Origin: a virus
Taxonomy: Duplodnaviria > Heunggongvirae > Uroviricota > Caudoviricetes
Virus record (IMG/VR): IMGVR_UViG_2563366917_000007
Length of the DNA stretch: 35,057 bases
Reading direction: 5' to 3' (one strand)
Shown: in pieces, positions 1-35,057 of the stretch
How positions within the stretch are numbered: position 1 is the first letter of the stretch
Layout: every line of letters begins with the position of its first letter
Notes under the pieces: model-generated
The model's database searches: none
Told to the model about the DNA's origin: nothing
Seen by the model: only the letters and a program-made list of their open reading frames with translations
Translations under genes and position numbers: made by a program

Positions 1-237
1 ATGATGTCTATAAATGAAGTTGTTAAACAGGACTGGCACCCCGCGCATGTTGTCGCGGCGGTGCATGTAAAAGGTTTTACTTTACGCTCTCTGTCCATTG
101 AAGCCGGTTTAAACCAGGATTCTTTAAAGAATGCCCTGTACCGCAAATGCCCAAAATATGAGCGCATTATTGCTGATGCTATTGGTGTTGCGCCGGAGGA
201 GATCTGGCCCAGCCGTTACGCTCGTAAGGTGGCATAA
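1..237 (+). CDS. ner: Ner-like DNA-binding regulator (Ner/Nlp family); may be 5'-truncated by the window edge
   Basis: 78-aa ORF directly upstream of the transposase; C-terminal IWPSRY motif and overall layout typical of the Ner/Nlp HTH family; position matches Mu ner. Confidence 0.75.
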   Translation: MMSINEVVKQDWHPAHVVAAVHVKGFTLRSLSIEAGLNQDSLKNALYRKCPKYERIIADAIGVAPEEIWPSRYARKVA

Positions 238-239
238 AA

Positions 240-2327
240 ATGTTTGTATCAGTTAATGAGCTTGTAGGGTTACCAGGTATGCCGGGAACTGCGCAAGGGG
301 TGCGGTATTCCATAAGGAAACTGGCCTCATCTGAGCATTTCAGGCGCAAACGTGCGGGTTCAAAAACCATTGAATACAGCATCGACTGCCTCCCTCCGGT
401 TACACAACGGGCGTTACGTGAGCGACATGTAGCTCAACTGATGGCAAGCGCCCCGCGGGAGATAACTACCCAGCCTCCTGTAAAGCGTGAACGCAAACAA
501 AATGTTGTACAGCCTGTTGAGGCATATCGCGGTTCGCCACAATTGGTAGAAGAGCGTCTGAATGCGCTTACGGAAAATCAACGTAAAGTTGCAGAAGCGC
601 GCATTGCTCTTGTCTGTGAAGTTCTACGAATTAGCCAGGAGCCGGGATTCAGTTGTGCCAGCGCTATACGTTTTATTGTGTCGCGGTTAGCGCAGGGTAA
701 CCTGGAAGAACGCCTGGAATCTTTGGTCATTACTGCTAATGCCCGTAAAGGAAAAGAGCGAACTCTGAGCGCAATTACGCTCAAACGTTGGATAGCTGCG
801 TTTAACAAAGCACAGAATGCCGCAGAACGACTGCTGTTACTGGCACCAGGAAAGCGCGACGAAATAAAACCGGAAGAAATTAGCTGGCTGCCTGAATTTC
901 TGGCGCAGTATCGTCAGGCTAACGGCAGGCCTATGTCTGAAGCCTATGAGGATTTTGTCGCTGATTGGCAGCGTCGCCATGCGGACGAACCATACATGCT
1001 GGAGGTGATGCCTTCCTATGATGTTGTCCGGTATGCCATGAAAAAACTGCCGGAAGTGGTGAAACAAAAAGGGCGCGTTACCGGCAGTGAATACCGTCAG
1101 CTTGAAGGATTCACCCGCCGCGACTGGACAGCTATGCCGGTGAATTATGTCTGGATTGGTGACGGTCACGGTATGAAGCTGAAATGTGCACATCCGATCC
1201 ACGGGCGTCCATTCTCACCGGAAGTTACATTTGTGATCGACGGTGGAACCCGGTTTGTTGTTGGCTGGAGTCTTGACCTTGCCGAGAACGTGTTCGCCGT
1301 TGCCGGTGCGATACAGCACGGCATTCGCAACCACGGAAAACCGTTTCTGTATTACTCGGATAATGGTTCTGGTGAAACGGCTGACATACTGGACAAAGAG
1401 GTCGTGGGTATTCTGCCCCGCCTGGGGATTAAACACCCTACCGGTATTGCCGGTAATCCACAGGGGCGCGGCATTATTGAACGCCTGAACCGGACACTGC
1501 CGATGCGTATAGCCAGGAGGTATCGCACCTATTTTGGCAAGGGTGCTGACCGGGAATCGTTGCGTGTACTTAACCGTGATCTGCGTTCAGCGTTTAACGC
1601 CATGCAACAGGACAAGCCTCTGAACGACCGCCAGAAAGCTGCAATGCGCGAGCTACCATCGTGGGCGGAGCTTATTGAGGCTATTCGTGAAGGCGTGGAA
1701 TGGTACAACAACCGCCCGCATTCTGAGCTGCCAATGAAACCGAACGGGCGGCATTACAGCCCGGCAGAGTTCAGAAAAAAACGCCTGGCAGAAGAAGACA
1801 CCGAAATTGAGTGGCTGAGTGATCTTGAGCTGCGCGACATGTTCCGCCCGATGGTGGAACGCCCGGTAAGACGGTGCGAAATTCAGTGGCTGAACAATAT
1901 TTACTACGCGCCGGAGTTGCGTGACGAACACGGTCGCAAAGTACTTATCAGTTATGACATTCATGACGCCGAGCGAATTACGGTACGTCGCAAGGACGGC
2001 AGCTTTATCTGTGAGGCGATATGGAACGGCAATAAACGCACAGCCTTTGCTGTCAGTGCTGAATATCACAAACAACAGCAGCGTATTAAAGGAATGCGCA
2101 AACGTGCTGAGGAAAAAATTCGTGATGCTGAGGATGAAGGCATTCAGATACTGGAGCACAAACAGGCTGAACCCTGGCTGGATAATGTTTATCGCCCGGT
2201 TGGCAATACGGTAACCATCCAGCAACAGGATTATGAGGAGGATTACGACGAAGATTATGAACGCGATTTCAGGCTGGGTTTGCAGAAGCTTGTAGCCATA
2301 CAGGAACAGGATGATCCGCTGGCCTGA
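240..2327 (+). CDS. A: Mu-type DDE transposase (A protein)
   Basis: 695-aa ORF immediately after ner; candidate DDE triad in IGDGHG / YYSDNGSG / IIERLN segments; acidic C-terminal tail; followed by the B ATPase as in Mu. Diverged from the Mu A sequence as I recall it. Confidence 0.85.
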   Translation: MFVSVNELVGLPGMPGTAQGVRYSIRKLASSEHFRRKRAGSKTIEYSIDCLPPVTQRALRERHVAQLMASAPREITTQPPVKRERKQNVVQPVEAYRGSPQLVEERLNALTENQRKVAEARIALVCEVLRISQEPGFSCASAIRFIVSRLAQGNLEERLESLVITANARKGKERTLSAITLKRWIAAFNKAQNAAERLLLLAPGKRDEIKPEEISWLPEFLAQYRQANGRPMSEAYEDFVADWQRRHADEPYMLEVMPSYDVVRYAMKKLPEVVKQKGRVTGSEYRQLEGFTRRDWTAMPVNYVWIGDGHGMKLKCAHPIHGRPFSPEVTFVIDGGTRFVVGWSLDLAENVFAVAGAIQHGIRNHGKPFLYYSDNGSGETADILDKEVVGILPRLGIKHPTGIAGNPQGRGIIERLNRTLPMRIARRYRTYFGKGADRESLRVLNRDLRSAFNAMQQDKPLNDRQKAAMRELPSWAELIEAIREGVEWYNNRPHSELPMKPNGRHYSPAEFRKKRLAEEDTEIEWLSDLELRDMFRPMVERPVRRCEIQWLNNIYYAPELRDEHGRKVLISYDIHDAERITVRRKDGSFICEAIWNGNKRTAFAVSAEYHKQQQRIKGMRKRAEEKIRDAEDEGIQILEHKQAEPWLDNVYRPVGNTVTIQQQDYEEDYDEDYERDFRLGLQKLVAIQEQDDPLA

Positions 2328-2400
2328 ATAAAAAAACAGTCCGCGGGAACGGACTGTTAAACGAAGGAAACAAAGCTGATTTGAATAAACGGAGAATAAT

Positions 2401-3333
2401 ATGACCGATATTAATGATGTTTTCAACACGATTAACACACTTATTACTGACGGCGTAAAAACACAAAGCGCTATTGCTAAAGAAGCGGGGGTGTCGGAGG
2501 CCACTCTTTCTGAACTTCGCAAAGGCCGTTACAAAGGTGATACCGAAGGGATGCATGACAAATTACTGATGTGGCATCAGAGCTGGCAAAAAAGTCTGGA
2601 GTTACCTGGCGCACCACAACTTGTGGAAACACAAACCCTCCGTGATTTGCGCGAGCTGTTTCAGACCGTGCGTGTTATGGGCTGTATCAGCGTTCTGGTT
2701 GGTGTGCCGGGTGTTGGTAAAACCGTTGCGGCCCGTGAATACAGTAACCGTGTATCTAATACCTGGATGGTGACCCTTTCCCCTGCACACTCAACAGTGA
2801 CTGAGTGTCTGCTGGAGCTGGCAGACGCGCTGGGAATTGATAATCCGCAAAGAAATAAAGGCGCATTGACCCGCGCCATTCGCAAAAAACTGAATGGCAC
2901 ACGCGGTCTGGTTATTGTGGATGAAGCTGACCACCTGAGCATGGACGGGCTGGAGCAGTTACGCGCCATTCAGGATGCAACCGGCGTCGGGATGGTATTG
3001 ATTGGCAACCCACACCAGTTAGCCAAAGCCACACACCGGGGAACAGATGACCTTGCACGTTTGTTCAGTCGTTTCGCCAGAACAAAGCAACTACGTAAAG
3101 CCAAAAAGGCTGACGTGGTGGCAATTGCGAAAGCCTGGGGCATTGAGGGCGAAGATGAATTATCACTCATGCAGAGCATCGCGGAAAAACCAGGTGCATT
3201 ACGTGTATTAACTCATACGCTGAATCAGGCGTGGCTGGCTGCCAGCGGGAAAGGCGTTCCTCTATCCAAAGGCTACATTAAAGCAGCTTTTAAAGAGGTT
3301 TACAGCAACCCGAAATTACTGAACTGGTGGTAA
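2401..3333 (+). CDS. B: Transposition target-DNA activator ATPase (B protein)
   Basis: 310 aa; Walker A GVPGVGKT and Walker B-like VIVDEADH; N-terminal HTH-like segment; position after A; good RBS (GGAGAATAAT-ATG). Confidence 0.85.
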   Translation: MTDINDVFNTINTLITDGVKTQSAIAKEAGVSEATLSELRKGRYKGDTEGMHDKLLMWHQSWQKSLELPGAPQLVETQTLRDLRELFQTVRVMGCISVLVGVPGVGKTVAAREYSNRVSNTWMVTLSPAHSTVTECLLELADALGIDNPQRNKGALTRAIRKKLNGTRGLVIVDEADHLSMDGLEQLRAIQDATGVGMVLIGNPHQLAKATHRGTDDLARLFSRFARTKQLRKAKKADVVAIAKAWGIEGEDELSLMQSIAEKPGALRVLTHTLNQAWLAASGKGVPLSKGYIKAAFKEVYSNPKLLNWW

Positions 3334-3344
3334 GGGGATAAATA

Positions 3345-7190: not shown

Positions 7191-7532
7191 ATGAGCAAAT
7201 CACTTAATGCACGTTGTATTCGCCGTTGGGAAGTCAGATTTAAGCCTGTTTGTGATTCAAAAGTTAGCCCTCACATGCGTAAAAGCTTTTTGCGTGGGGT
7301 GCGTGAATTAGGGCTTATTACGGCTGAAAACATGGTTGAAAGCATGGCTGAGAAAAACGCCAGGTTTGATTACGACGGCAAGGACACAGGCTGGTCACCG
7401 GAGTTTTCTAACTGGTATGCAACATGCCGAGAAAAGTATTGTAAAGAGGCCCGCGACTATCTGGATGAAGAAGTCACAAACGATGAGATCGATGAAGAAA
7501 TCAGAACTGAGCTAGAGTATTGGAATGACTAA
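7191..7532 (+). CDS. Hypothetical early protein with acidic C-terminus
   Basis: 113-aa ORF, ATG 2 nt after previous stop. Confidence 0.5.
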   Translation: MSKSLNARCIRRWEVRFKPVCDSKVSPHMRKSFLRGVRELGLITAENMVESMAEKNARFDYDGKDTGWSPEFSNWYATCREKYCKEARDYLDEEVTNDEIDEEIRTELEYWND

Positions 7533-9996: not shown

Positions 9997-10366
9997 AAGT
10001 TTACTTCTGGCAGCCGTGTTTGCCGCCGTTCTGTCCGGGGTGTTGTGGCACAGGCTGGACAGCACCCGCCACGATAACCAGACGCTGCGCCGTAAATTAC
10101 AGACGGAGCAACAGGCCCGCCACACTGCTGAATGGTTGTTACACAGTCAGGAACAGACGATGCAGGTATTTTCCGCTATCCGTGCCGCAAATCGTGCCGC
10201 GCGGCTGGAAGATGAGACAGAACATCATGATGCCAAACAAAAAATTACAACCGCTATTACCGGTGACAATTGCAGCACTCGTCCTGTGCCTGCCGTTGCT
10301 GCTGACAGGTTGCGGGAACTCGAAAAACGCACCCGTGCCATCGGTGGTGATCCTTCCCGAAACTGA
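9980..10366 (+). CDS. i-spanin (Rz-like inner-membrane spanin)
   Basis: 128 aa; N-terminal TM helix (LLLAAVFAAVLSGVLW) then charged coiled-coil-like periplasmic region; overlaps lys 3' end. Confidence 0.55.
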   Translation: MTFASKSLLLAAVFAAVLSGVLWHRLDSTRHDNQTLRRKLQTEQQARHTAEWLLHSQEQTMQVFSAIRAANRAARLEDETEHHDAKQKITTAITGDNCSTRPVPAVAADRLRELEKRTRAIGGDPSRN

Positions 10367-23131: not shown

Positions 23132-25576
23132 ATGACCGGGAAACGCTTAAAAGCGTCAGTCATTATTGACCTTAATGGCAATCTTTCCCGGCGTTCCCGC
23201 CAGTATTCGAACCAGATAAACGCCCTGTCCCGTAGCGGGCAAAGTTCCCTTCGTGCCCTGCGTATGGAGGTTGTGCGCGTTTCTGGTGCCATTGACAGAA
23301 TGGGTTCTCTGTCAACCCGTACATTCCGAATGCTGTCAGCCGGGGCGCTGGGTATCGCTGGCGTGGGTTACACCGCCAATAAACTGTTTATTGGTGCAGC
23401 CGCCCAGCGTGAGCAACAGATCATCGCCATGAACTCGCTGTATCACGGCGATAAGGTCAGAGCGCAGGCCATGATGGCCTGGGCAAAGCAGAACGCGAAG
23501 GACACCACGTGGGGGCTGAGTGGTGTTCTTGATGAGATCCGTTCGTCGAAAGGCTTCGGCATGACGGATGAACAGACGAAACAGTTCATCACCATGTTGC
23601 AGGATCAGGGGGCCATGCACGGCTGGGATTTACCCACTGCACAGGGTGCCTCACTGCAACTGAAACAGATGTTTGCCCGCCAGCAAATCACAGCGGCGGA
23701 TGCCAACCTGCTGACCGGTTACGGTATCAACGTTTATCAGGCGCTGGCTGATGCAACGGGAACGGACGTTAAAAAAATCCGTGATCTGGGTACAAAGGGC
23801 AAGCTGGGCATGAAATCCATTCTGACGGTATTCAGAACGCTGTCAGAACAGTCAAAAGGTGCACAGGCCAGTGCGATGAACTCCTGGGACGGGATGTTCG
23901 CCCAGATGGAAGCCAACCTGCTTGAATTTCGCATAAAGGTGGCAAACAGCGGCCCCTTTGAAGAAATCAAGAACGAGATGCGCCGGGTGCTTAACTGGCA
24001 CGACATGGCGGATAAATCCGGGGAACTTGACGCACTGGCAGAAAACATTGGTCAGAAATTTCTGACCACGTTCAGAACGGTAAAAATCGCGGCGCAGGAA
24101 TTATGGCGCTGGCTGAAACCGGGCAAGGATGCGCTGGTATGGGTTGACCAGAATATTGTCAGCCTGAAAAAACTGGCTGCTGTTCTGGTGTCCGTCTGGC
24201 TTGCCAACAAAGCTCTGAGGACAGGCTGGGCCGTGGCTAAACCCTCATGGCAGGTTGCCAGTTATCCGTTTAAAACCGGGCGTCGTATGTGGCGCCGGAT
24301 GCGGAACCGCAAACGTGAGCAGGCAGGTCTGCCGATCCCGGCGCCCATGACAACTGAGGCGCTGTTGCAGGGCACCGGCATTCAGCGTGTGTTTGTCATC
24401 AACTGGCCCCGTGGATTTGGTGGCTACGGGAGTGGCGGCGGTCGTCGCGGACGCGGCGGCGGAAGAACGCCCCCGCTGTTACCCCGCCAGCCGCTGTTGC
24501 TGCCCGGGCCACGACCACTGCCATTACCTGCACCACGCCCTGTGCCGGCATTACCCCCACCCGGCGTTCCGGCAGCAGCACGCCCCGCGCCACGACCTTT
24601 ACCCGGTAAATCCGGTCTTCCGGGCAGGTTTGCAGGCAGCGCTGCCGCGCAGCAGGTTACGGGAGCGGCAGGAACGCTGGCGAATGCCGGGCGTACTGTC
24701 AGCAGACTGCTTTCCGGTGCCGGAAACAGGCAGACCGCGCCATCTCCGGTCGTCCCGGTAACACCGCGCCCCGCGCCCCGCCCTTTGCCCGCTAAATCCG
24801 GTCTTCCGGGCAGGCTGGCAGGCAGCGCTGCCGCGCAGCAGGTTACGGGAGCGGCAGGAACGCTGGCGGATGCCGGGCGTACTGTCAGCAGACTGCTTTC
24901 CGGTGCCGGAAACAGGCAGCCCGCGCCATCTCCGGTCGTCCCGGTAACACCGCGCCCTGCGCCACGCCCTTTGCCCGCTAAATCCGGTCTTCCGGGCAGG
25001 CTGGCAGGCAGCGCTGCCGGGCAACGGGTTACGGGAACGGTCGGAAAACTGGCTGATGTCGGGCGTGCCGTTGGCGGGTGGTTTTCCGGTATCGGGAACA
25101 GACTCGCAGACAGCGCAATCGGTAGGGTTGTGACAAAAGGTGCCGGGGCGCTGGGCTGGATGGGGAAAGGTGCCGGTCGTGCCCTGTCACGTCTGGGTGG
25201 CCCGGTAATGGGGGCACTCCAGCTTGCCCCCGTCCTGATGGATGAGCAGGCGTCAACCCATGAAAAAGCAGGCGCAATTGGCAGTACAGCCGGTGCATGG
25301 CTCGGCGGTGCCGTTGGCAGCCTTGCCGGACCGCTGGGTACGGTTGCCGGTGCCACGTTGGGCAGTGTCGCCGGGGAGTATCTGGGCGGTTTTGTAACCG
25401 ACCTGTATCAGAAATGGACGGCCCCGGATAAGGAACCGCAGGAACAAAAAGTGAATGCGGAAGCCTCGCTGCGCGTCGAACTTGGCGAGGGGTTACGTCT
25501 GACCAGTTCCCGCGTCACCGAGGACGGTATGGGGCTGAATATTTACGCGGGCGATAACTACATTACAGGCTGGTAA
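23132..25576 (+). CDS. Y: Tail tape measure protein
   Basis: Start at ATG 23132 (RBS AGGAAAT) rather than ORF-track 23039; ~814 aa; helical N-terminal half, Gly/Pro-rich low-complexity C-terminal half. Confidence 0.8.
24581..25080 (+). repeat. 186-bp near-perfect tandem repeat (~2.7 copies) inside the tape measure gene
   Basis: Anchor TAAATCCGGTCTTCCGGG recurs at 24607, 24793 and 24979 (period 186 bp = 62 codons); encoded copies differ at only a few residues. Confidence 0.85.
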
Positions 25577-30298: not shown

Positions 30299-30831
30299 CA
30301 CCCTATCAGACGGCCTTTCTGCAATTACTGCCGTCAGGGCTTGCCTGGAATAAAAGCCCCGACAGCAAATTATCTGCGCTGGCGCAGGCCATCAGCGACG
30401 TGATTGCCACTGCGGCGGATGATGCGCGGCAAATGCTGCGGGAGCGTTTCCCGTCCACATCCCGCTGGTATCTGGGTGAGTGGGAATCATTTCTGGGGTT
30501 GCCGGACTGTACAAGCGAAAACGGCACCCTGTCCGAACGCCAGCGGGCTGCCGCGAATAAAATGCGTATGACCGGCAATCTGAGTCGGCGCTTTTATGAA
30601 TGGCTGGCTGCGCAGTACGGTTTTACCGTCAGGCTGACGGATTCCACAGAAGGCCAGTGGGTTACGCAGGTCAATATTTACGGTATTAAAAATTATCGCA
30701 ACGCAACGGTGCTGGATAATGTTCTGACGCCGTTACGTGTTTATGAATCGGGTGCGCTGGAATGTTTACTGGAGAAATATAAACCTGCACATCAGATTTA
30801 TAAATTTGTTTACCATGACGGAGATAACTAA
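30289..30831 (+). CDS. Baseplate/tail protein (Mu gp48, P2 gpI-like)
   Basis: 180 aa; overlaps neighbours; immediately precedes the fiber gene. Confidence 0.65.
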   Translation: MAVTPYQTAFLQLLPSGLAWNKSPDSKLSALAQAISDVIATAADDARQMLRERFPSTSRWYLGEWESFLGLPDCTSENGTLSERQRAAANKMRMTGNLSRRFYEWLAAQYGFTVRLTDSTEGQWVTQVNIYGIKNYRNATVLDNVLTPLRVYESGALECLLEKYKPAHQIYKFVYHDGDN

Positions 30832-33395
30832 TGTTTTATATTGATAACGACAGCGGCGTAACCGTCATGCCGCCCGTATCCGCCCAGCGTAGTGCTATCG
30901 TTCGCTGGTTTTCAGAAGGTGACGGGAATAATGTTATCACATGGCCCGGCATGGACTGGTTTAATATTGTGCAGGCGGAGTTATTAAACACGCTGGAAGA
31001 AGCCGGTATTCAACCGGATAAAACAAAATTAAACCAGCTTGCACTGTCCATTAAAGCCATTATGGGCAATAACGCGCTGCTGATAAAAAATAACCTCAGC
31101 GAAATAAAAACGGCCGGGGCATCAGCACAGCGCACAGCACGTGAAAATCTGGGTATTTATGATGCCAGTGTGAGCAAAAAGGGGCTGGTTCAGCTAAGCA
31201 GTGCAACAAACAGCACCAGTGAAAAGCTGGCAGCAACGCCAAAAGCGGTCAAGGCAGCAAATGACAACGCAAATTCACGTCTGGCGAAAAATCAGAACGG
31301 TGCAGATATCCAGGATAAATCAGCTTTTCTGGACAATGTTGGCGTTACCAGCCTGACGTTTATGAAAAACAATGGCGAAATGCCGCTTGATGCTGATCTG
31401 AATACATTTGGTCCCGTTAAGGCTTATCTGGGGATCTGGTCTAAAGCTACCTCAACTAACGCAACACTGGAGAAAAATTTTCCGGAAGATAATGCTGTCG
31501 GTGTGCTTGAGGTTTTTGCTGCCGGCAATTTTGCAGGCACGCAACGCTTTATCACGAGAGACGGCAATGTATACATGCGTAAACTCGCCAATAAGTGGAA
31601 TGGTACTGATGGTCCATGGGGCGTATGGCGTCACACTCAATCAGCTACCCGCCCTTTGAGTACGACTATAGACCTGAATACGCTTGGAGCCGCCGAACAT
31701 CTTGGTTTATGGCGTAACAGTAGCTCGGCTATAGCTTCATATGAACGCAATTATCCAGAGGAAGGCGGCTTTGCTCAGGGGACGCTTGAGATCCTCGAAG
31801 GCGGGAATTATGGAAGAACACAACGTTATACCACTCGCCGTGGAAATATGTATGTCCGCTGCCTTGCGGCAAGCTGGGATGCATCAAATCCGCAGTGGGA
31901 ACCGTGGTTAAGAGTCGGTCATCAGTCAGAGAGTCGTTATTACGACGGGGATTTGAATGATGTGACTTCACCAGGTATTTACAGCGTTACAGGTAAAGCG
32001 ACCAACGGTCCAGTACTGGACGGAAACGGCGTGACTGTACTCGGCATTCTGGAAGTGTTGAGGCGGTTTGATGGTGTTAATGTATGGCAGCGTTATACAA
32101 CTGCCGGAACAGGTACAACCCTTAAAGGCCGCACCTTTGAGCGCGTCTTTACCGGCAGCTCATGGAGCGAATGGCGGGAAGTCTACACCTCGTATTCACT
32201 TCCCCTGAATCTGGGTATCGGCGGTGCTGTGGCAAAGCTCACCAGCCTGGACTGGCAGACCCACGACTTTGTGCCGGGCAGTCTGATAACCGTTCGGCTT
32301 GATAACATGACCAACATTCCCAACGGTATGGACTGGGGCGTCATTGATGGCAACCTGATAAACATCGCAGTTGGTCCGAGTGATGATTCCGGTACGGGGC
32401 GCTCAATGCATGTATGGCGCAGCACTGTAAGTAAAGCGAACTACCGCTTTTTTATGGTGCGTATTTCAGGAAATCCGGGACGCCGCACGATTACAGCAAG
32501 ACGAGTACCAATCATTGACGAAGCCCAGACATGGGGCGCGAAACAGACATTCAGTGCTGGCCTTTCTGGTGAACTGTCCGGCAATGCGGCGACAGCAACA
32601 AAGCTGAAAACAGCCCGTAAAATTAATAACGTTTCGTTTGATGGAACATCAGATATTAACCTGACGCCGAAAAATATTGGTGCATTTGCTTCAGGAAAAA
32701 CAGGAGACACCGTTGCGAATGATAAAGCCGTTGGATGGAACTGGAGTAGCGGAGCCTATAACGCAACTATTGGTGGGGCATCAACGTTAATTCTTCATTT
32801 TAATATCGGGGAAGGAAGTTGTCCCGCCGCCCAGTTTCGCGTTAATTATAAGAACGGTGGTATTTTTTATCGTTCTGCTCGTGACGGTTACGGATTCGAG
32901 GCTGACTGGTCTGAGTTTTATACCACAACGCGAAAACCTACAGCGGGAGATGTCGGTGCACTGCCGTTATCTGGTGGTCAATTGAATGGTGCTCTGGGTA
33001 TAGGAACATCCAGTGCTCTTGGCGGTAATTCGATTGTTTTGGGTGATAATGACACGGGCTTTAAACAAAATGGTGATGGTAATCTGGATGTTTATGCTAA
33101 TAGCGTCCATGTTATGCGCTTTGTCTCCGGAAGCGTTCAAAGTAATAAAACCATAAATATTACGGGGCGTGTTAATCCCTCGGATTACGGTAACTTTGAT
33201 TCCCGCTATGTGAGAGATATCAGACTTGGCACACGTGTTGTCCAGACCATGCAGAAAGGGGTGATGTATGAGAAAGCAGGGCACGTAATTACCGGGCTTG
33301 GTATTGTCGGTGAAGTCGATGGTGATGACCCCGCAGTATTCAGACCAATACAAAAATACATCAATGGCACATGGTATAACGTTGCGCAGGTGTAA
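30831..33395 (+). CDS. S: Tail fiber protein (S-like), unusually long, with three internal domain repeats
   Basis: 854 aa; fiber-like N-terminal attachment region; three ~80-aa repeats (approx. aa 187-268, 279-362, 372-452) sharing D-L-N-T-x-G ... NYPE ... TQR(F/Y)xTR ... W; fiber-like Gly/Ser/Thr-rich C-terminal region. Confidence 0.8.
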   Translation: MFYIDNDSGVTVMPPVSAQRSAIVRWFSEGDGNNVITWPGMDWFNIVQAELLNTLEEAGIQPDKTKLNQLALSIKAIMGNNALLIKNNLSEIKTAGASAQRTARENLGIYDASVSKKGLVQLSSATNSTSEKLAATPKAVKAANDNANSRLAKNQNGADIQDKSAFLDNVGVTSLTFMKNNGEMPLDADLNTFGPVKAYLGIWSKATSTNATLEKNFPEDNAVGVLEVFAAGNFAGTQRFITRDGNVYMRKLANKWNGTDGPWGVWRHTQSATRPLSTTIDLNTLGAAEHLGLWRNSSSAIASYERNYPEEGGFAQGTLEILEGGNYGRTQRYTTRRGNMYVRCLAASWDASNPQWEPWLRVGHQSESRYYDGDLNDVTSPGIYSVTGKATNGPVLDGNGVTVLGILEVLRRFDGVNVWQRYTTAGTGTTLKGRTFERVFTGSSWSEWREVYTSYSLPLNLGIGGAVAKLTSLDWQTHDFVPGSLITVRLDNMTNIPNGMDWGVIDGNLINIAVGPSDDSGTGRSMHVWRSTVSKANYRFFMVRISGNPGRRTITARRVPIIDEAQTWGAKQTFSAGLSGELSGNAATATKLKTARKINNVSFDGTSDINLTPKNIGAFASGKTGDTVANDKAVGWNWSSGAYNATIGGASTLILHFNIGEGSCPAAQFRVNYKNGGIFYRSARDGYGFEADWSEFYTTTRKPTAGDVGALPLSGGQLNGALGIGTSSALGGNSIVLGDNDTGFKQNGDGNLDVYANSVHVMRFVSGSVQSNKTINITGRVNPSDYGNFDSRYVRDIRLGTRVVQTMQKGVMYEKAGHVITGLGIVGEVDGDDPAVFRPIQKYINGTWYNVAQV

Positions 33396-33398
33396 ATT

Positions 33399-33926
33399 AT
33401 GCAGCATTTAAAAAACATTAAGTCAGGTAATCCAAAAACAAAAGAACAATATCAGCTAACAAAGAATTTTGATGTTATCTGGTTATGGTCCGAAGACGGA
33501 AAAAACTGGTATGAGGAAGTAAGTAATTTTCAGCCAGACACAATAAAGATTGTTTACGATGAAAATAATATTATTGTCGCCATCACCAGAGATGCTTCAA
33601 CGCTCAACCCTGAAGGTTTTAGCGTTGTCGAGGTTCCTGATATTACCGCCAACCGACGTGCAGACGACTCAGGTAAATGGATGTTTAAGGATGGTGCCGT
33701 GATTAAGCGGATTTATACGGCGGACGAACAGCAGCAACTGACAGAATTACAGAAGGCAACTTTGCTTTCCGAAGCTGAATCCGTGATTTTGCCGCTGGAA
33801 CGCGCTGTCAGGCTGAATATGGCAACAGATGAGGAGCACAGCCGACTGGAGGCATGGGAACGCTACAGCGCTCTGGTCAGCCGCGTGGATACGGCAAAGC
33901 CAGAATGGCCACAAAAACCAGAGTAA
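33399..33926 (+). CDS. U: Tail fiber assembly protein (U-like)
   Basis: 175 aa; C-terminus [25 protein letters not shown] is the typical Tfa signature; directly after the fiber. Confidence 0.8.
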
Positions 33927-33954
33927 AAATTAAGGCCCGATAGCGGGCCTTCTC

Positions 33955-34060
33955 TTATTCTGGTTGTTCGGAAAACGTTACTGGCAGGCTGGAGGGGTCT
34001 GTATATTCGACCTTCTGCGCATAGAGCATCCACTCGGTTAATTTTTGTTTATTCTCGTCG
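33955..34060 (-). pseudogene. Remnant of a second, inverted tail fiber assembly gene (U'-like C-terminal fragment)
   Basis: Minus-strand ORF ends ...LTEWMLYAQKVEYTDPSSLPVTFSEQPE, matching the Tfa C-terminal signature, tail-to-tail with U as in an invertible G segment; the upstream part lacks Tfa features. Confidence 0.4.
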
Positions 34061-34101
34061 GAAATGATACCCAGCCGTAGCGAACGCATATAGAAAACGA
34101 C

Positions 34102-34210
34102 GATCGAATCAATTGAATCGATCGGTAATACAGATCGATTATGCCCCAATAACCACACTCAACCCATGATGTTTTTTAAGATAGTGGCGAATTGATGCAA
34201 AGGAGGTGAG
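34102..34210 (+). promoter_or_regulatory. mom operon control region: three clustered Dam sites (CGATCG) plus candidate C-dependent Pmom
   Basis: GATC at 34102-34105, 34120-34123 and 34133-34136, all within 35 bp and all in CGATCG context, ~75-110 bp upstream of com; AGGAGG RBS before com. Confidence 0.6.
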
Positions 34211-34399
34211 ATGAAATCAATTCGCTGTAAAAACTGCAACAAACTGTTATTTAAGGCGGATTCCTTTGTTCACATTGAAATCAGGTGTCCGCGTTGCAAA
34301 CGTCACATCATAATGCTGAATGCCTGCGAGCATCCCACGGAGAAACATTGTGGGAAAAGAGAAAAAATCACGCATTCTGACGAAACCGTGCGTTATTGA
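34211..34399 (+). CDS. com: Com zinc-finger translational activator of mom
   Basis: 62 aa; CKNC...CPRC zinc finger; 3' end overlaps mom; matches Mu Com as I recall it. Confidence 0.85.
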
Positions 34400-35057
34400 G
34401 TATGAAGGCCAGATTGTTGGCTATGGTTCAAAGGAGCTGCGCGTTGAAACCATATCCTGCTGGCTGGCCCGCACAATTATTCAGACAAAGCACTATTCCC
34501 GCCGTTTTGTGAATAACTCTTACCTTCACCTGGGGGTATTCAGCGGGCGCGATCTGGTTGGCGTTCTCCAGTGGGGATATGCCCTTAACCCCAACTCAGG
34601 TCGTCGTGTCGTGCTTGAAACGGATAACCGGGGCTATATGGAGCTGAATCGCATGTGGCTACACGACGACATGCCCCGCAACTCTGAATCACGGGCCATC
34701 AGCTACGCGCTGAAAGTTATCAGATTACTGTATCCGTCAGTGGAGTGGGTTCAGTCATTTGCTGACGAACGCTGCGGATGCGCAGGCGTTGTGTATCAGG
34801 CGTCGAATTTTGATTTTATTGGCAGCCATGAAAGCACGTTCTACGAGCTGGATGGTGAGTGGTATCACGAGATAACGATGAACGCAATTAAGCGCGGTGG
34901 ACAACGAGGCGTGTATTTACGGGCTAATAAAGAGCGTGCCGTGGTGCACAAATTTAATCAGTATCGCTACATCAGGTTCCTGAACAAGCGAGCAAGGAAG
35001 CGGCTAAATACTAAGCTATTCAGGGTTCAGCCATACCCTAAAAGCACTCCCGATTAG
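34320..35057 (+). CDS. mom: Mom DNA-modification enzyme (adenine carbamoylmethylation, anti-restriction); initiation codon uncertain
   Basis: ORF overlapping com 3' end and ending at the last base of the window; position at the right end as in Mu. True start may be downstream of 34320 (e.g. GTG at 34350). Confidence 0.8.

Follow-up and report, generated by a model that had tools for sequence, protein, structure and literature searches.

A probable relic of the Mu G-segment/Gin inversion switch in an Escherichia coli prophage

Gene order and the chimeric fibre gene

The 35,057-nt stretch of DNA that was analyzed (the window) contains the Mu-type late region of an Escherichia coli prophage, in which the tail-fibre gene S and the tail-fibre assembly gene U are followed by a terminator hairpin, one minus-strand open reading frame (ORF), com and mom. 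The Mu late genes are all full length, with 94-100% amino acid identity to Mu, and gp47, gp48, Sc, com and mom are 97-100% identical to Mu and D108 at the nucleotide level; the early genes ner, A and B are merely about 36-46% identical to those of Mu. This late-gene set, com/mom, an annotated Mu transposase and AAA ATPase, and an insertion that splits a host gene (in strain 1290) place the phage in the genus Muvirus. As in Mu and D108, the order is S, U, terminator and U', the latter tail-to-tail with U, and the mom control region lies where gin ends. Unlike these two phages, the window lacks gixL, gixR, S'v and the body of gin, and has a P2-type fibre in place of Sv, with an S protein 350 amino acids longer than that of Mu. 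An earlier note on this DNA had described S and U as followed only by a minus-strand ORF placed tail-to-tail with U, and this ORF (33955-34158, minus strand, 67 amino acids) indeed lies there. The layout of S, U, a U' remnant and mom in the absence of an invertase is confirmed as real, far beyond chance expectation.

The ORF list, blastn, blastp and Pfam together identify S (30831-33395, plus strand, 854 amino acids) as a chimera. Residues 1 to about 108 represent the constant part Sc of Mu and D108, with 99-100% nucleotide identity to Mu until approximately position 31150. Residues 111-854 form a shaft and tip of the H type of peduoviruses (P2-like phages). In blastp alignments, they are collinear with residues 168-911 of H from Yersinia phage vB_YpM_50 (95% identity), and the H protein of Escherichia phage PhiR44_2 is 91% identical to the same part of S. 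Nucleotide identity to peduovirus H is 94% overall and as high as 100% in 100-bp bins. Pfam matches were obtained for Phage_fiber_2 (residues 113-154, corresponding to 31167-31292) and gp37_C. By blastp, residues 618-710 are 85% identical to residues 164-256 of Mu S', and the tip (residues 780-854) is 88% identical to the D108 S tip. U (33399-33926, plus strand, 175 amino acids) is intact and of the U/G type (Pfam Caudo_TAP, E-value 3.4e-33), with about 90% amino acid identity to Mu U, D108 U and P2-like G (89% to vB_YpM_50 G). Fibre tip and chaperone U are G(+)-like by these identities to Mu and D108. The expressed fibre is not Mu Sv, and its distal part is of the peduovirus H type; it differs from peduovirus H in that the N-terminal baseplate-attachment part is Mu Sc and the genome is of the transposable Mu type.

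Alignments, per-100-bp identities and Pfam place the left recombination zone at 31153-31309 (plus strand), within a conserved "phage tail fibre repeat" (LVQLSSATNSTSE..AATPKAVK). Within this zone, the window parts from the sequence common to all other Mu-like phages and enters H-type sequence. The change occurs at about 31153-31200, and position 31153 lies approximately 170 nt before the gixL position. The blastn match of S to Mu stops at 31309, and the peduovirus match covers 31190 to 33910 or 34081. Just past the left breakpoint, some 40 nt (31153-31190) have no match in Mu or in the peduoviruses sampled, which therefore do not include the donor. An exact 31-mer spanning the left chimeric junction had no match in IMG/VR, where the sibling contig carries a different allele in the fibre repeat at this junction.

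The position homologous to Mu gixL (31327-31352, plus strand) is occupied by H-type coding sequence (TTCTGGACAATGTTGGCGTTACCAGC) and aligns to Mu gixL without forming a gix site. The earlier note had proposed a search for gix-like inverted repeats, and none was detected in the window: the best match to the Mu gix 26-mer in a whole-window scan has 10/26 mismatches, and a repeat search over 30700-34300 yielded only chance-level matches; flanking inverted repeats of more than 35 nt at 74% complementarity were absent.

Stubs of U' and gin

A two-way rho-independent terminator hairpin (AAGGCCCGATAGCGGGCCTT, 33932-33951) was found between U and the minus-strand ORF in a two-strand terminator scan. 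The same hairpin is present in Mu and D108, where it is annotated in D108 and kept in the alignment. It is followed by the U' stub (33955-34080, minus strand), which consists of the last 41 codons and the stop codon of a second tail-fibre assembly gene. By tblastn, the stub is 92.9% identical to residues 137-178 of Mu U' over 42 positions (E-value 1.6e-20), and in Pfam residues 26-67 of the ORF correspond to profile positions 89-131 of the 131 positions of Caudo_TAP (E-value 1.6e-9, above the curated cut-off). These matches bear out the Tfa signature that had been claimed for the C-terminus of the minus-strand ORF. As full-length Caudo_TAP members span about 131 profile positions in a protein of about 175 amino acids, the stub is a fragment of the family and not a functional member. 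The Tfa-derived portion of the 67-residue ORF is limited to the C-terminal 41 codons; the N-terminal 26 codons are an accidental extension that reads the gin stub and the mom operator in antisense. The ORF begins with GTG and has no clear ribosome-binding site, and no promoter-like sites were detected on either strand between 33700 and 34400. Without a start codon and a promoter of its own, the U' stub is a pseudogene, probably not expressed, and RefSeq likewise labels it as a partial pseudogene ("incomplete, missing N-terminus").

We regard it as highly improbable that the stub has been kept for a function, either as a Tfa C-terminal peptide of 41-67 residues or as a spacer or insulator before mom. 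The 67-residue ORF is open, the stub shows conservation in L128, a diverged sibling, and a G' stub of similar length occurs in eight IMG/VR contigs of P2-like phages. However, the lack of expression signals and the antisense origin of the N-terminal 26 residues argue against a product, the fibre partner S' has been lost, and stub lengths differ in other collapsed lineages.

Directly adjoining the U' stub are the last 11 codons and the stop codon of the G-segment invertase gene (R-T-H-I-E-N-D-D-R-I-N-stop; 34081-34116, plus strand). This gin stub matches residues 183-194 of Gin at 11/12 positions (tblastn) and is identical to the 3' ends of intact gin genes in other Mu-like contigs, for example L059. 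As the earlier note had stated, there is no invertase: with Mu Gin as the tblastn query, the last 12 gin codons are the sole Gin-like match in the whole 35-kb window, all others having E-values above 2. From 34081 onwards, the sequence is 97.9% identical to the gin-3'/com/mom region of Mu, so that the mom control region starts at once, again as had been noted. This upstream region (34101-34136), with GATC (Dam) sites at 34102, 34120 and 34133 and a 24-nt near-palindrome, is what we take, from established Mu biology, to be the Dam/OxyR control region of mom. It is intact, with 98-100% identity to Mu and the deletion endpoint 21 nt to its left. Both com (34211-34399, plus strand) and mom (34320-35057, plus strand) are also intact, with 98 and 99% amino acid identity to Mu Com and Mom, respectively.

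Relative to Mu, blastn delineates a gap of 1,980 bp: S'v and gixR are lost completely, U' for the most part and gin almost entirely. The junction reads CGTAGC/GAACGC at 34081/34082, and the corresponding Mu breakpoints are 33657 and 35638. Both flanks of the gap are preserved in stub form, the 3' end of U' being fused at 34081 to the 3' end of gin, and this proves the deletion that the earlier note had suspected. The recombinational enhancer of the inversion system lies in the 5' part of gin. For Mu, it is described as located within the invertase gene (Kahmann et al., 1985, cited in PMC10434027). The gin body (Mu 35092-35637) is entirely missing from the window, and with it the Fis-binding sis enhancer. 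Two alternative fibres are no longer encoded, since S and U alone are complete, no more than 41 codons of U' are left and a separate minus-strand S'v gene is absent. With neither a gix-like site nor an invertase anywhere in the window, the whole switch is gone, and an invertase supplied by another prophage would find no substrate, as crossover sites are lacking. A deletion mediated by Gin at quasi-gix sites was considered and rejected, as the endpoints match gix, by eye, at just about 10/24 positions.

The earlier note went further and read the locus as a Mu G segment frozen in one orientation by a deletion. In full, this reading would have a segment in the G(+) orientation lose S', U' and gin in one deletion, with S and U as the original Mu genes. 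Part of this stands, because the deletion is real, with endpoints in U' and gin, and because tip and U are G(+)-like. The Mu origin of S does not stand: at 31153, S leaves the sequence of all other Mu-like phages, and beyond this point its identity to peduovirus H is 94-100%; its length exceeds that of Mu S by 350 residues. A single deletion cannot explain a locus in which S is H-type from 31153 and gixL is absent, and we consider this reading very unlikely.

Relatives, distribution and mobility

The full S'/U'/gin module is present in Mu, D108 and SfMu, in the prophages of 44 of the 46 E. coli genomes with this com/mom region, and in most Mu-like contigs of IMG/VR. Those 44 genomes have a recombinase gene directly upstream of com/mom, starting exactly at window position 34081. 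As the nearest relatives carry the full module, the gin-less architecture is derived and not ancestral, in line with the deletion proposed in the earlier note. The distant Mu-like prophage STEC719 and the IMG/VR loci L143 and L144 (gp48 68-70% identical in these two loci) do proceed from the fibre genes to com/mom without U' or gin, as expected if the lineage had never possessed an invertible segment. However, 126 nt of U' and 36 nt of gin remain in the window in the right order and orientation, and the backbone is 97-100% identical to the segment-bearing phages Mu and D108. The presence of both stubs refutes an ancestral origin, to which we assign next to no probability.

Both junctions were found only in E. 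coli S6 and E. coli 1290 (2/46 complete genomes) and in IMG/VR contig 2875703104_000002; the collapsed state is thus derived and rare. An exact 23-mer across the deletion junction had no match in IMG/VR, GTDB representative genomes or JGI metagenomes; a single SNP hid the IMG/VR sibling from this search, and it was recovered via the conserved U' block. Invertible segments with inverted repeats are sometimes mis-assembled, and a collapse of the inverted-repeat region during assembly could in principle mimic a deletion. However, two complete genomes and one IMG genome share the junction, which lies at three sites among them, with 3-7% divergence in the flanking sequence, and is not located at a repeat; this makes an artefact the least credible of all explanations.

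The three chromosomal insertion sites are within ydcO, beside ydcV and beside emrD/ysdE, and the prophage of strain 1290 is flanked by both halves of ydcO. Together with the full-length late genes, these sites and boundaries suggest that the phage was probably mobile after the collapse of the switch and may be viable, although intracellular transposition without infectious particles could in principle also account for the differing sites.

At least two further lineages, one Mu-like and one P2-like, have lost the invertase independently. In L137/L142 (IMG/VR 2850808358_000012 and 2562617057_000010), gixR and gin were likewise lost by deletion, with a right endpoint about 10 nt from that of the window, just left of the mom control region. 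These contigs differ from the window in that S is of the Mu type and contains gixL, U' is full length and part of S'v survives, the left endpoint being in S'v and not in U'. PhiR44_2, too, is without its invertase and retains a G' stub. The window has a stub that is 14 nt shorter and borders on Mu gin, not on the tail of a P2-type invertase. Complete H/G/G'/H'/invertase modules exist in other P2-like E. coli prophages (e.g. AH20J067), whose G-terminator-G' block is 90% identical to window positions 32934-34081. These loci have kept the second chaperone, the alternative fibre end and the recombinase, all of which are absent in the window. Inversion in P2-like E. coli prophages with such modules has been documented (PMC4272514).

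The existence of P2-like phages with intact modules, and of collapsed derivatives, raises the question of whether an already collapsed H-G-G' stub arrangement, as in PhiR44_2, was imported in one step, with the U' stub/gin join as an illegitimate right crossover. The PhiR44_2 stub ends just 14 nt past that of the window, and identity to this phage is 90% over 31190-34081. Still, the stub endpoints are not the same, the U gene of PhiR44_2 is merely 66-79% identical, and an illegitimate crossover at the end of donor homology is no more parsimonious than a later deletion. Moreover, L137/L142 lost gin by plain deletion, with the Mu-type S and gixL remaining. We therefore view a one-step import as unlikely, albeit the most plausible of the alternatives. 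Among 114 IMG/VR contigs, U'/G' truncations fall into four types, with endpoints at about residues 12, 107, 131 and 137. A left-side deletion hot spot in U'/G' was rejected, as by a rough estimate the closeness of the window and PhiR44_2 endpoints is compatible with chance.

Proposed history and significance

With a probability of roughly 80%, we interpret the locus as the relic of a completely dismantled Mu G-segment/Gin inversion switch in an otherwise intact Mu-type prophage, separated from Mu by two changes. In one, a peduovirus H/G-type cassette took the place of a stretch running from the 3' end of Sc through gixL and Sv into much of U, probably by a left crossover in the tail-fibre repeat (about 31153-31200) and a right crossover in the shared U/terminator/U' block. 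The tail-to-tail U/U' block is found in about 700 of 5,426 E. coli genomes, in P1-like plasmids and in P2-like and Mu-like prophages, and therefore offers ample homology for cassette exchange. For the 3' end of U and the stub, the best non-self identity was 93.9%, and no closer donor was found. In the other change, an illegitimate 2-kb deletion fused U' codon 137 to gin codon 183, probably using only patchy microhomology (CCCAGCCGTAGC in U' versus CCCCGCC-AAAC in gin) and taking away the rest of U', S'v, gixR and the promoter and body of gin, hence the enhancer. Either event could have come first and been the one that stopped inversion.

No intermediate form (a chimeric S with intact U'/S'/gin, or a Mu-type S with this deletion) was detected in any complete E. 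coli genome or in 25 Mu-like loci of IMG/VR, so the two-step history is one that we infer. The phage would now make a single fibre, folded by U, in which the baseplate-attachment N-terminus of Mu is combined with a long shaft of the P2 type and a G(+)/D108-like tip. The U' and gin stubs would be inert leftovers, caught between the U terminator and the mom Dam/OxyR control region, neither of which could be lost.

The three deletions that removed an invertase (in the window, in L137/L142 and of the PhiR44_2 type) all end in the last 12-17 or so invertase codons, with right endpoints immediately left of the next functional element. Very tentatively, and against our own expectation, switch loss may follow a preferred route, set either by a deletion hot spot or by strong selection to strip all dispensable bases. 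A C-rich AAAAACACCCCGC patch beside the mom palindrome could be such a hot spot. Alternatively, selection could act once one gix site has been lost, for example through headful-packaging pressure after acquisition of a fibre gene that is 1 kb longer. If this is true, collapse of the switch would be a recurrent, predictable exit from a phase-variable to a fixed host range.

The locus reveals no new mechanism, and the case is a real yet ordinary one of phage gene shuffling and decay. Our literature searches found no description of a gin-less Mu-type prophage in E. coli. For annotators and for host-range prediction, it is a warning that a Mu-like prophage may have a fixed receptor-binding fibre of the peduovirus type. 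It also adds a small data point on fibre cassettes that cross unrelated phage families via fibre-repeat and chaperone blocks. G inversion in Mu is the textbook example of phage bet-hedging on host range, and the locus is a similarly small data point on the dispensability of bet-hedging modules: in natural E. coli, close relatives of Mu can abandon the switch for a single long P2-type fibre and apparently still be mobile.

Remnants of U' and gin beside the mom control region

The tail-fibre gene S (30831-33395, 854 aa) and its assembly gene U (33399-33926, 175 aa) are followed by a two-way terminator hairpin (33932-33951), a minus-strand ORF (33955-34158, 67 aa), com (34211-34399) and mom (34320-35057). 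The earlier note took the minus-strand ORF for a Tfa remnant, and this was borne out. Its C-terminal 41 codons (33955-34080) are 92.9% identical to aa 137-177 of Mu U' (E-value 1.6e-20), which belongs to the second, opposite-strand fibre set of the Mu G segment, and they match profile positions 89-131 of 131 of Pfam Caudo_TAP (E-value 1.6e-9). Codons 1-26 have no U' homology and are antisense to the downstream sequence. In two E. coli genomes, the RefSeq pipeline annotates 33955-34080 as a partial pseudogene for tail fibre assembly, so the key relic is already on record there.

A stub of gin, the G-segment invertase gene, begins directly at 34081. It comprises the last 12 codons (11/12 identical), and no other Gin-like sequence was found in the 35 kb window, in agreement with the claim that the invertase is missing. 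Relative to Mu, the join connects position 33657 with 35638, and the 1,980 bp that are gone contained most of U', all of S'v, the right crossover site gixR and nearly all of gin. No promoter-like site was found for the stubs, the U' part has no start codon and its partner S' is lost; both stubs are therefore probably inert.

After the gin stub, 97.9% identity to Mu continues through the mom control region, com and mom. As had been noted, the control region starts at once, with GATC sites at 34102, 34120 and 34133 (n = 3). It is intact because the deletion endpoint lies 21 nt to its left. Upstream of mom, a 24-nt near-perfect palindrome (CGATCGAATCAATTGAATCGATCG, 34101-34124) covers two Dam sites. 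Mu has TTAAAT at this position (TAA being the gin stop codon), which makes the palindrome less perfect, and the TTGAAT form is present in both gin-less Mu-like lineages and in some gin-bearing ones. Mom has 245 aa in the window and in D108 versus 241 aa in Mu.

Distribution and the prophage as a whole

The collapsed state is derived and rare. Among 46 complete E. coli genomes with this com/mom region, 44 have a match that begins exactly at window position 34081 and a recombinase gene directly upstream; the collapsed right junction was found only in S6 and 1290. The chimeric left junction, a switch from Mu-type to H-type sequence inside S (H being the P2-like counterpart), is likewise limited to these two among complete E. 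coli genomes. The full S'/U'/gin module is present in Mu, D108 and SfMu, an invertible G segment with Gin has been described for Mu-like Yersinia phages, and in IMG/VR gin was detected in six related Mu-like contigs that reach com. One further IMG/VR contig (2875703104_000002, L128) shares the Mu endpoints of the window, apart from one SNP in the junction. It encodes an 881-aa version of the chimeric S, and the contig and the window differ by 3-7%. More distant Mu-like prophages have neither a G segment nor stubs. With both stubs present in the window, these prophages are not the proper reference, and the alternative of an ancestral absence of the G segment does not apply.

The three collapsed prophages are inserted at three different sites (inside ydcO, adjoining ydcV, and adjoining emrD/ysdE), so the collapse cannot be an assembly artefact. 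The insertion in strain 1290 spans 36.1 kb between the two halves of ydcO and is annotated with a repressor, a transposase and all late genes. Together with the three sites, this complete element suggests that the phage was still mobile after the collapse. Between 34000 and 35057, ~4 nt separate the window from the prophages of S6 and 1290 (99.6% identity), indicating a third, very close source.

The window extends from ner through the mom stop codon of a Mu-type prophage. The late genes from lys to gp48 form a full set of full length, with 94-100% protein identity to Mu, whereas identity falls to ~36-46% for the early genes ner, A and B. At the DNA level, the early region (1-3340) does not resemble Mu: Ner and B show 46% and 44% amino acid identity, transposase A gives a weak N-terminal match only, and Mu gp7, gp13-15 and gp19 are absent. 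A heterologous transposition module thus accompanies a late region that is otherwise 97-100% Mu-like. The tape-measure gene (~23132-25576) contains an in-frame 186-bp tandem repeat (24581-25066) in 2.6 copies versus one in Mu; the resulting protein of ~814 aa (690 aa in Mu) predicts a longer tail. Prophage length is 36.1 kb versus 36.7 kb for Mu. The 2-kb loss roughly balances the 1.05-kb-longer S plus the 0.37-kb expansion of the tape-measure gene, and one may speculate that headful-packaging pressure contributed.

A P2-type fibre without crossover sites

Judged by its sequence, the fixed fibre is not Mu's. S is 99-100% identical to Mu up to ~31150, and similarity ends at 31309. Over 31190-33910, the window matches H and G of peduovirus vB_YpM_50 at 94% identity, with many 100-bp bins at 100%; against the P2-like phage PhiR44_2, identity is 90% over 31190-34081. 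At the protein level, aa 168-911 of vB_YpM_50 H align with S aa 111-854 at 95% identity. The S tip is 88% identical to that of D108, an internal block of S shares 85% identity with Mu S', and U shares ~90% with its counterparts in Mu and D108 and with P2-like G.

The left breakpoint lies inside a conserved tail-fibre repeat (Pfam Phage_fiber_2, S aa 113-154); the window and its IMG/VR sibling L128 diverge from all other Mu-like sequences immediately after CGTGAAAATCTGG at 31153. The ~40 nt past the breakpoint (31153-31190) have no match in Mu or in the sampled peduovirus H genes, and the sibling (7365-7450) has yet another allele of the repeat motif, suggesting an unsampled third fibre gene as donor, or a re-shuffled repeat.

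The position of the left crossover site gixL (31327-31352) is occupied by H-type coding sequence, the best match to Mu gix across the window has 10/26 mismatches, and no long inverted repeat was found flanking the fibre region. The switch has thus lost its two crossover sites, its invertase and its alternative fibre set. The recombinational enhancer, which lies within gin (cited in PMC10434027), has been lost as well. The observation of the earlier note is thus confirmed, and its interpretation is partly supported: the 1,980-bp deletion fits a switch frozen by deletion, but it was not simply Mu's switch that froze, as the fibre is P2-type and the gixL position was also replaced.

Origin of the locus and recurrent loss of the invertase

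About 700 of 5,426 E. coli genomes contain the U/terminator/U' block, which is carried by P1-like plasmids and by P2-like and Mu-like prophages. Complete H-G-G'-H'-invertase modules were found in P2-like prophages, for which inversion has been documented (PMC4272514). The locus most likely arose by a cassette swap and a deletion, and the shared U/terminator/U' blocks and the fibre repeat provide homology for such swaps. The right-hand join is illegitimate: U' reads ...CCCAGCCGTAGC/TGTG (slash, breakpoint), gin in the allele of a gin-bearing Mu-like contig (L059) reads ...CCCCGCC-AAAC/GAACGC, and the window reads ...CCCAGCCGTAGC/GAACGC. Swap and deletion may have happened in either order, since no intermediate between the Mu module and the collapsed form was found among 25 IMG/VR Mu-like loci and complete E. 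coli genomes. One-step import from a P2-like donor with an already collapsed switch is unlikely; PhiR44_2 does carry a G' stub like that of the window and just 14 nt longer, but the two stubs end at different positions, and identity in its U-type gene reaches only 66-79%.

The invertase has been lost independently several times. Two IMG/VR contigs of a second gin-less Mu-like lineage (2850808358_000012, L137; 2562617057_000010, L142) retain U, all of U' and a portion of S'v, as well as a Mu-type S that includes gixL. Their gixR and gin are lost; on the right, the deletion ends <= ~10 nt from the endpoint in the window and shows the microhomology AAACACC. In the PhiR44_2 type (eight IMG/VR contigs), the G' stub runs into the final few codons of the phage's own invertase, and U'/G' is truncated in two further types. 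Left endpoints are scattered (~aa 12, 107, 131, 137). On the right, three independent events end within the last 12-17 invertase codons (window 34081; L137/L142 ~10062-10097; PhiR44_2, L002, 5930-5966), two on Mu-like backbones, within ~10 nt of each other, and one on a P2-like backbone. This clustering (n = 3) could be due to chance or microhomology, to a hot spot linked to the palindrome, or to selection for removing all sequence before the next needed element.

Other arrangements were also seen. A P2-like subgroup (E. coli AH20J067, L004 2826-7795; PhiR44_2, L002 5234-5966) has the opposite-strand tail genes gpU and gpT after H and G, and either a complete H-G-G'-H'-invertase module or the collapsed form with a 47-codon G' stub. 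In E. coli N61 (NZ_AP028880 4066406-4069335), a lone Mu right-end fragment adjoins yjiT, with partial U', S', gin, com and mom and no other Mu genes; here decay took a different course, and the switch end survives. In two IMG/VR Mu-like contigs, Sc is broken by unrelated, possibly insertion-sequence DNA (L140, ~7390) or fused to inverted sequence from beyond gixR (L065, ~1040).

The architecture is new; the underlying system and processes, mosaic recombination and illegitimate deletion, are well known. The phage would make a single fibre type and have a host range without phase variation, and Pin or Gin acting in trans would find no substrate.
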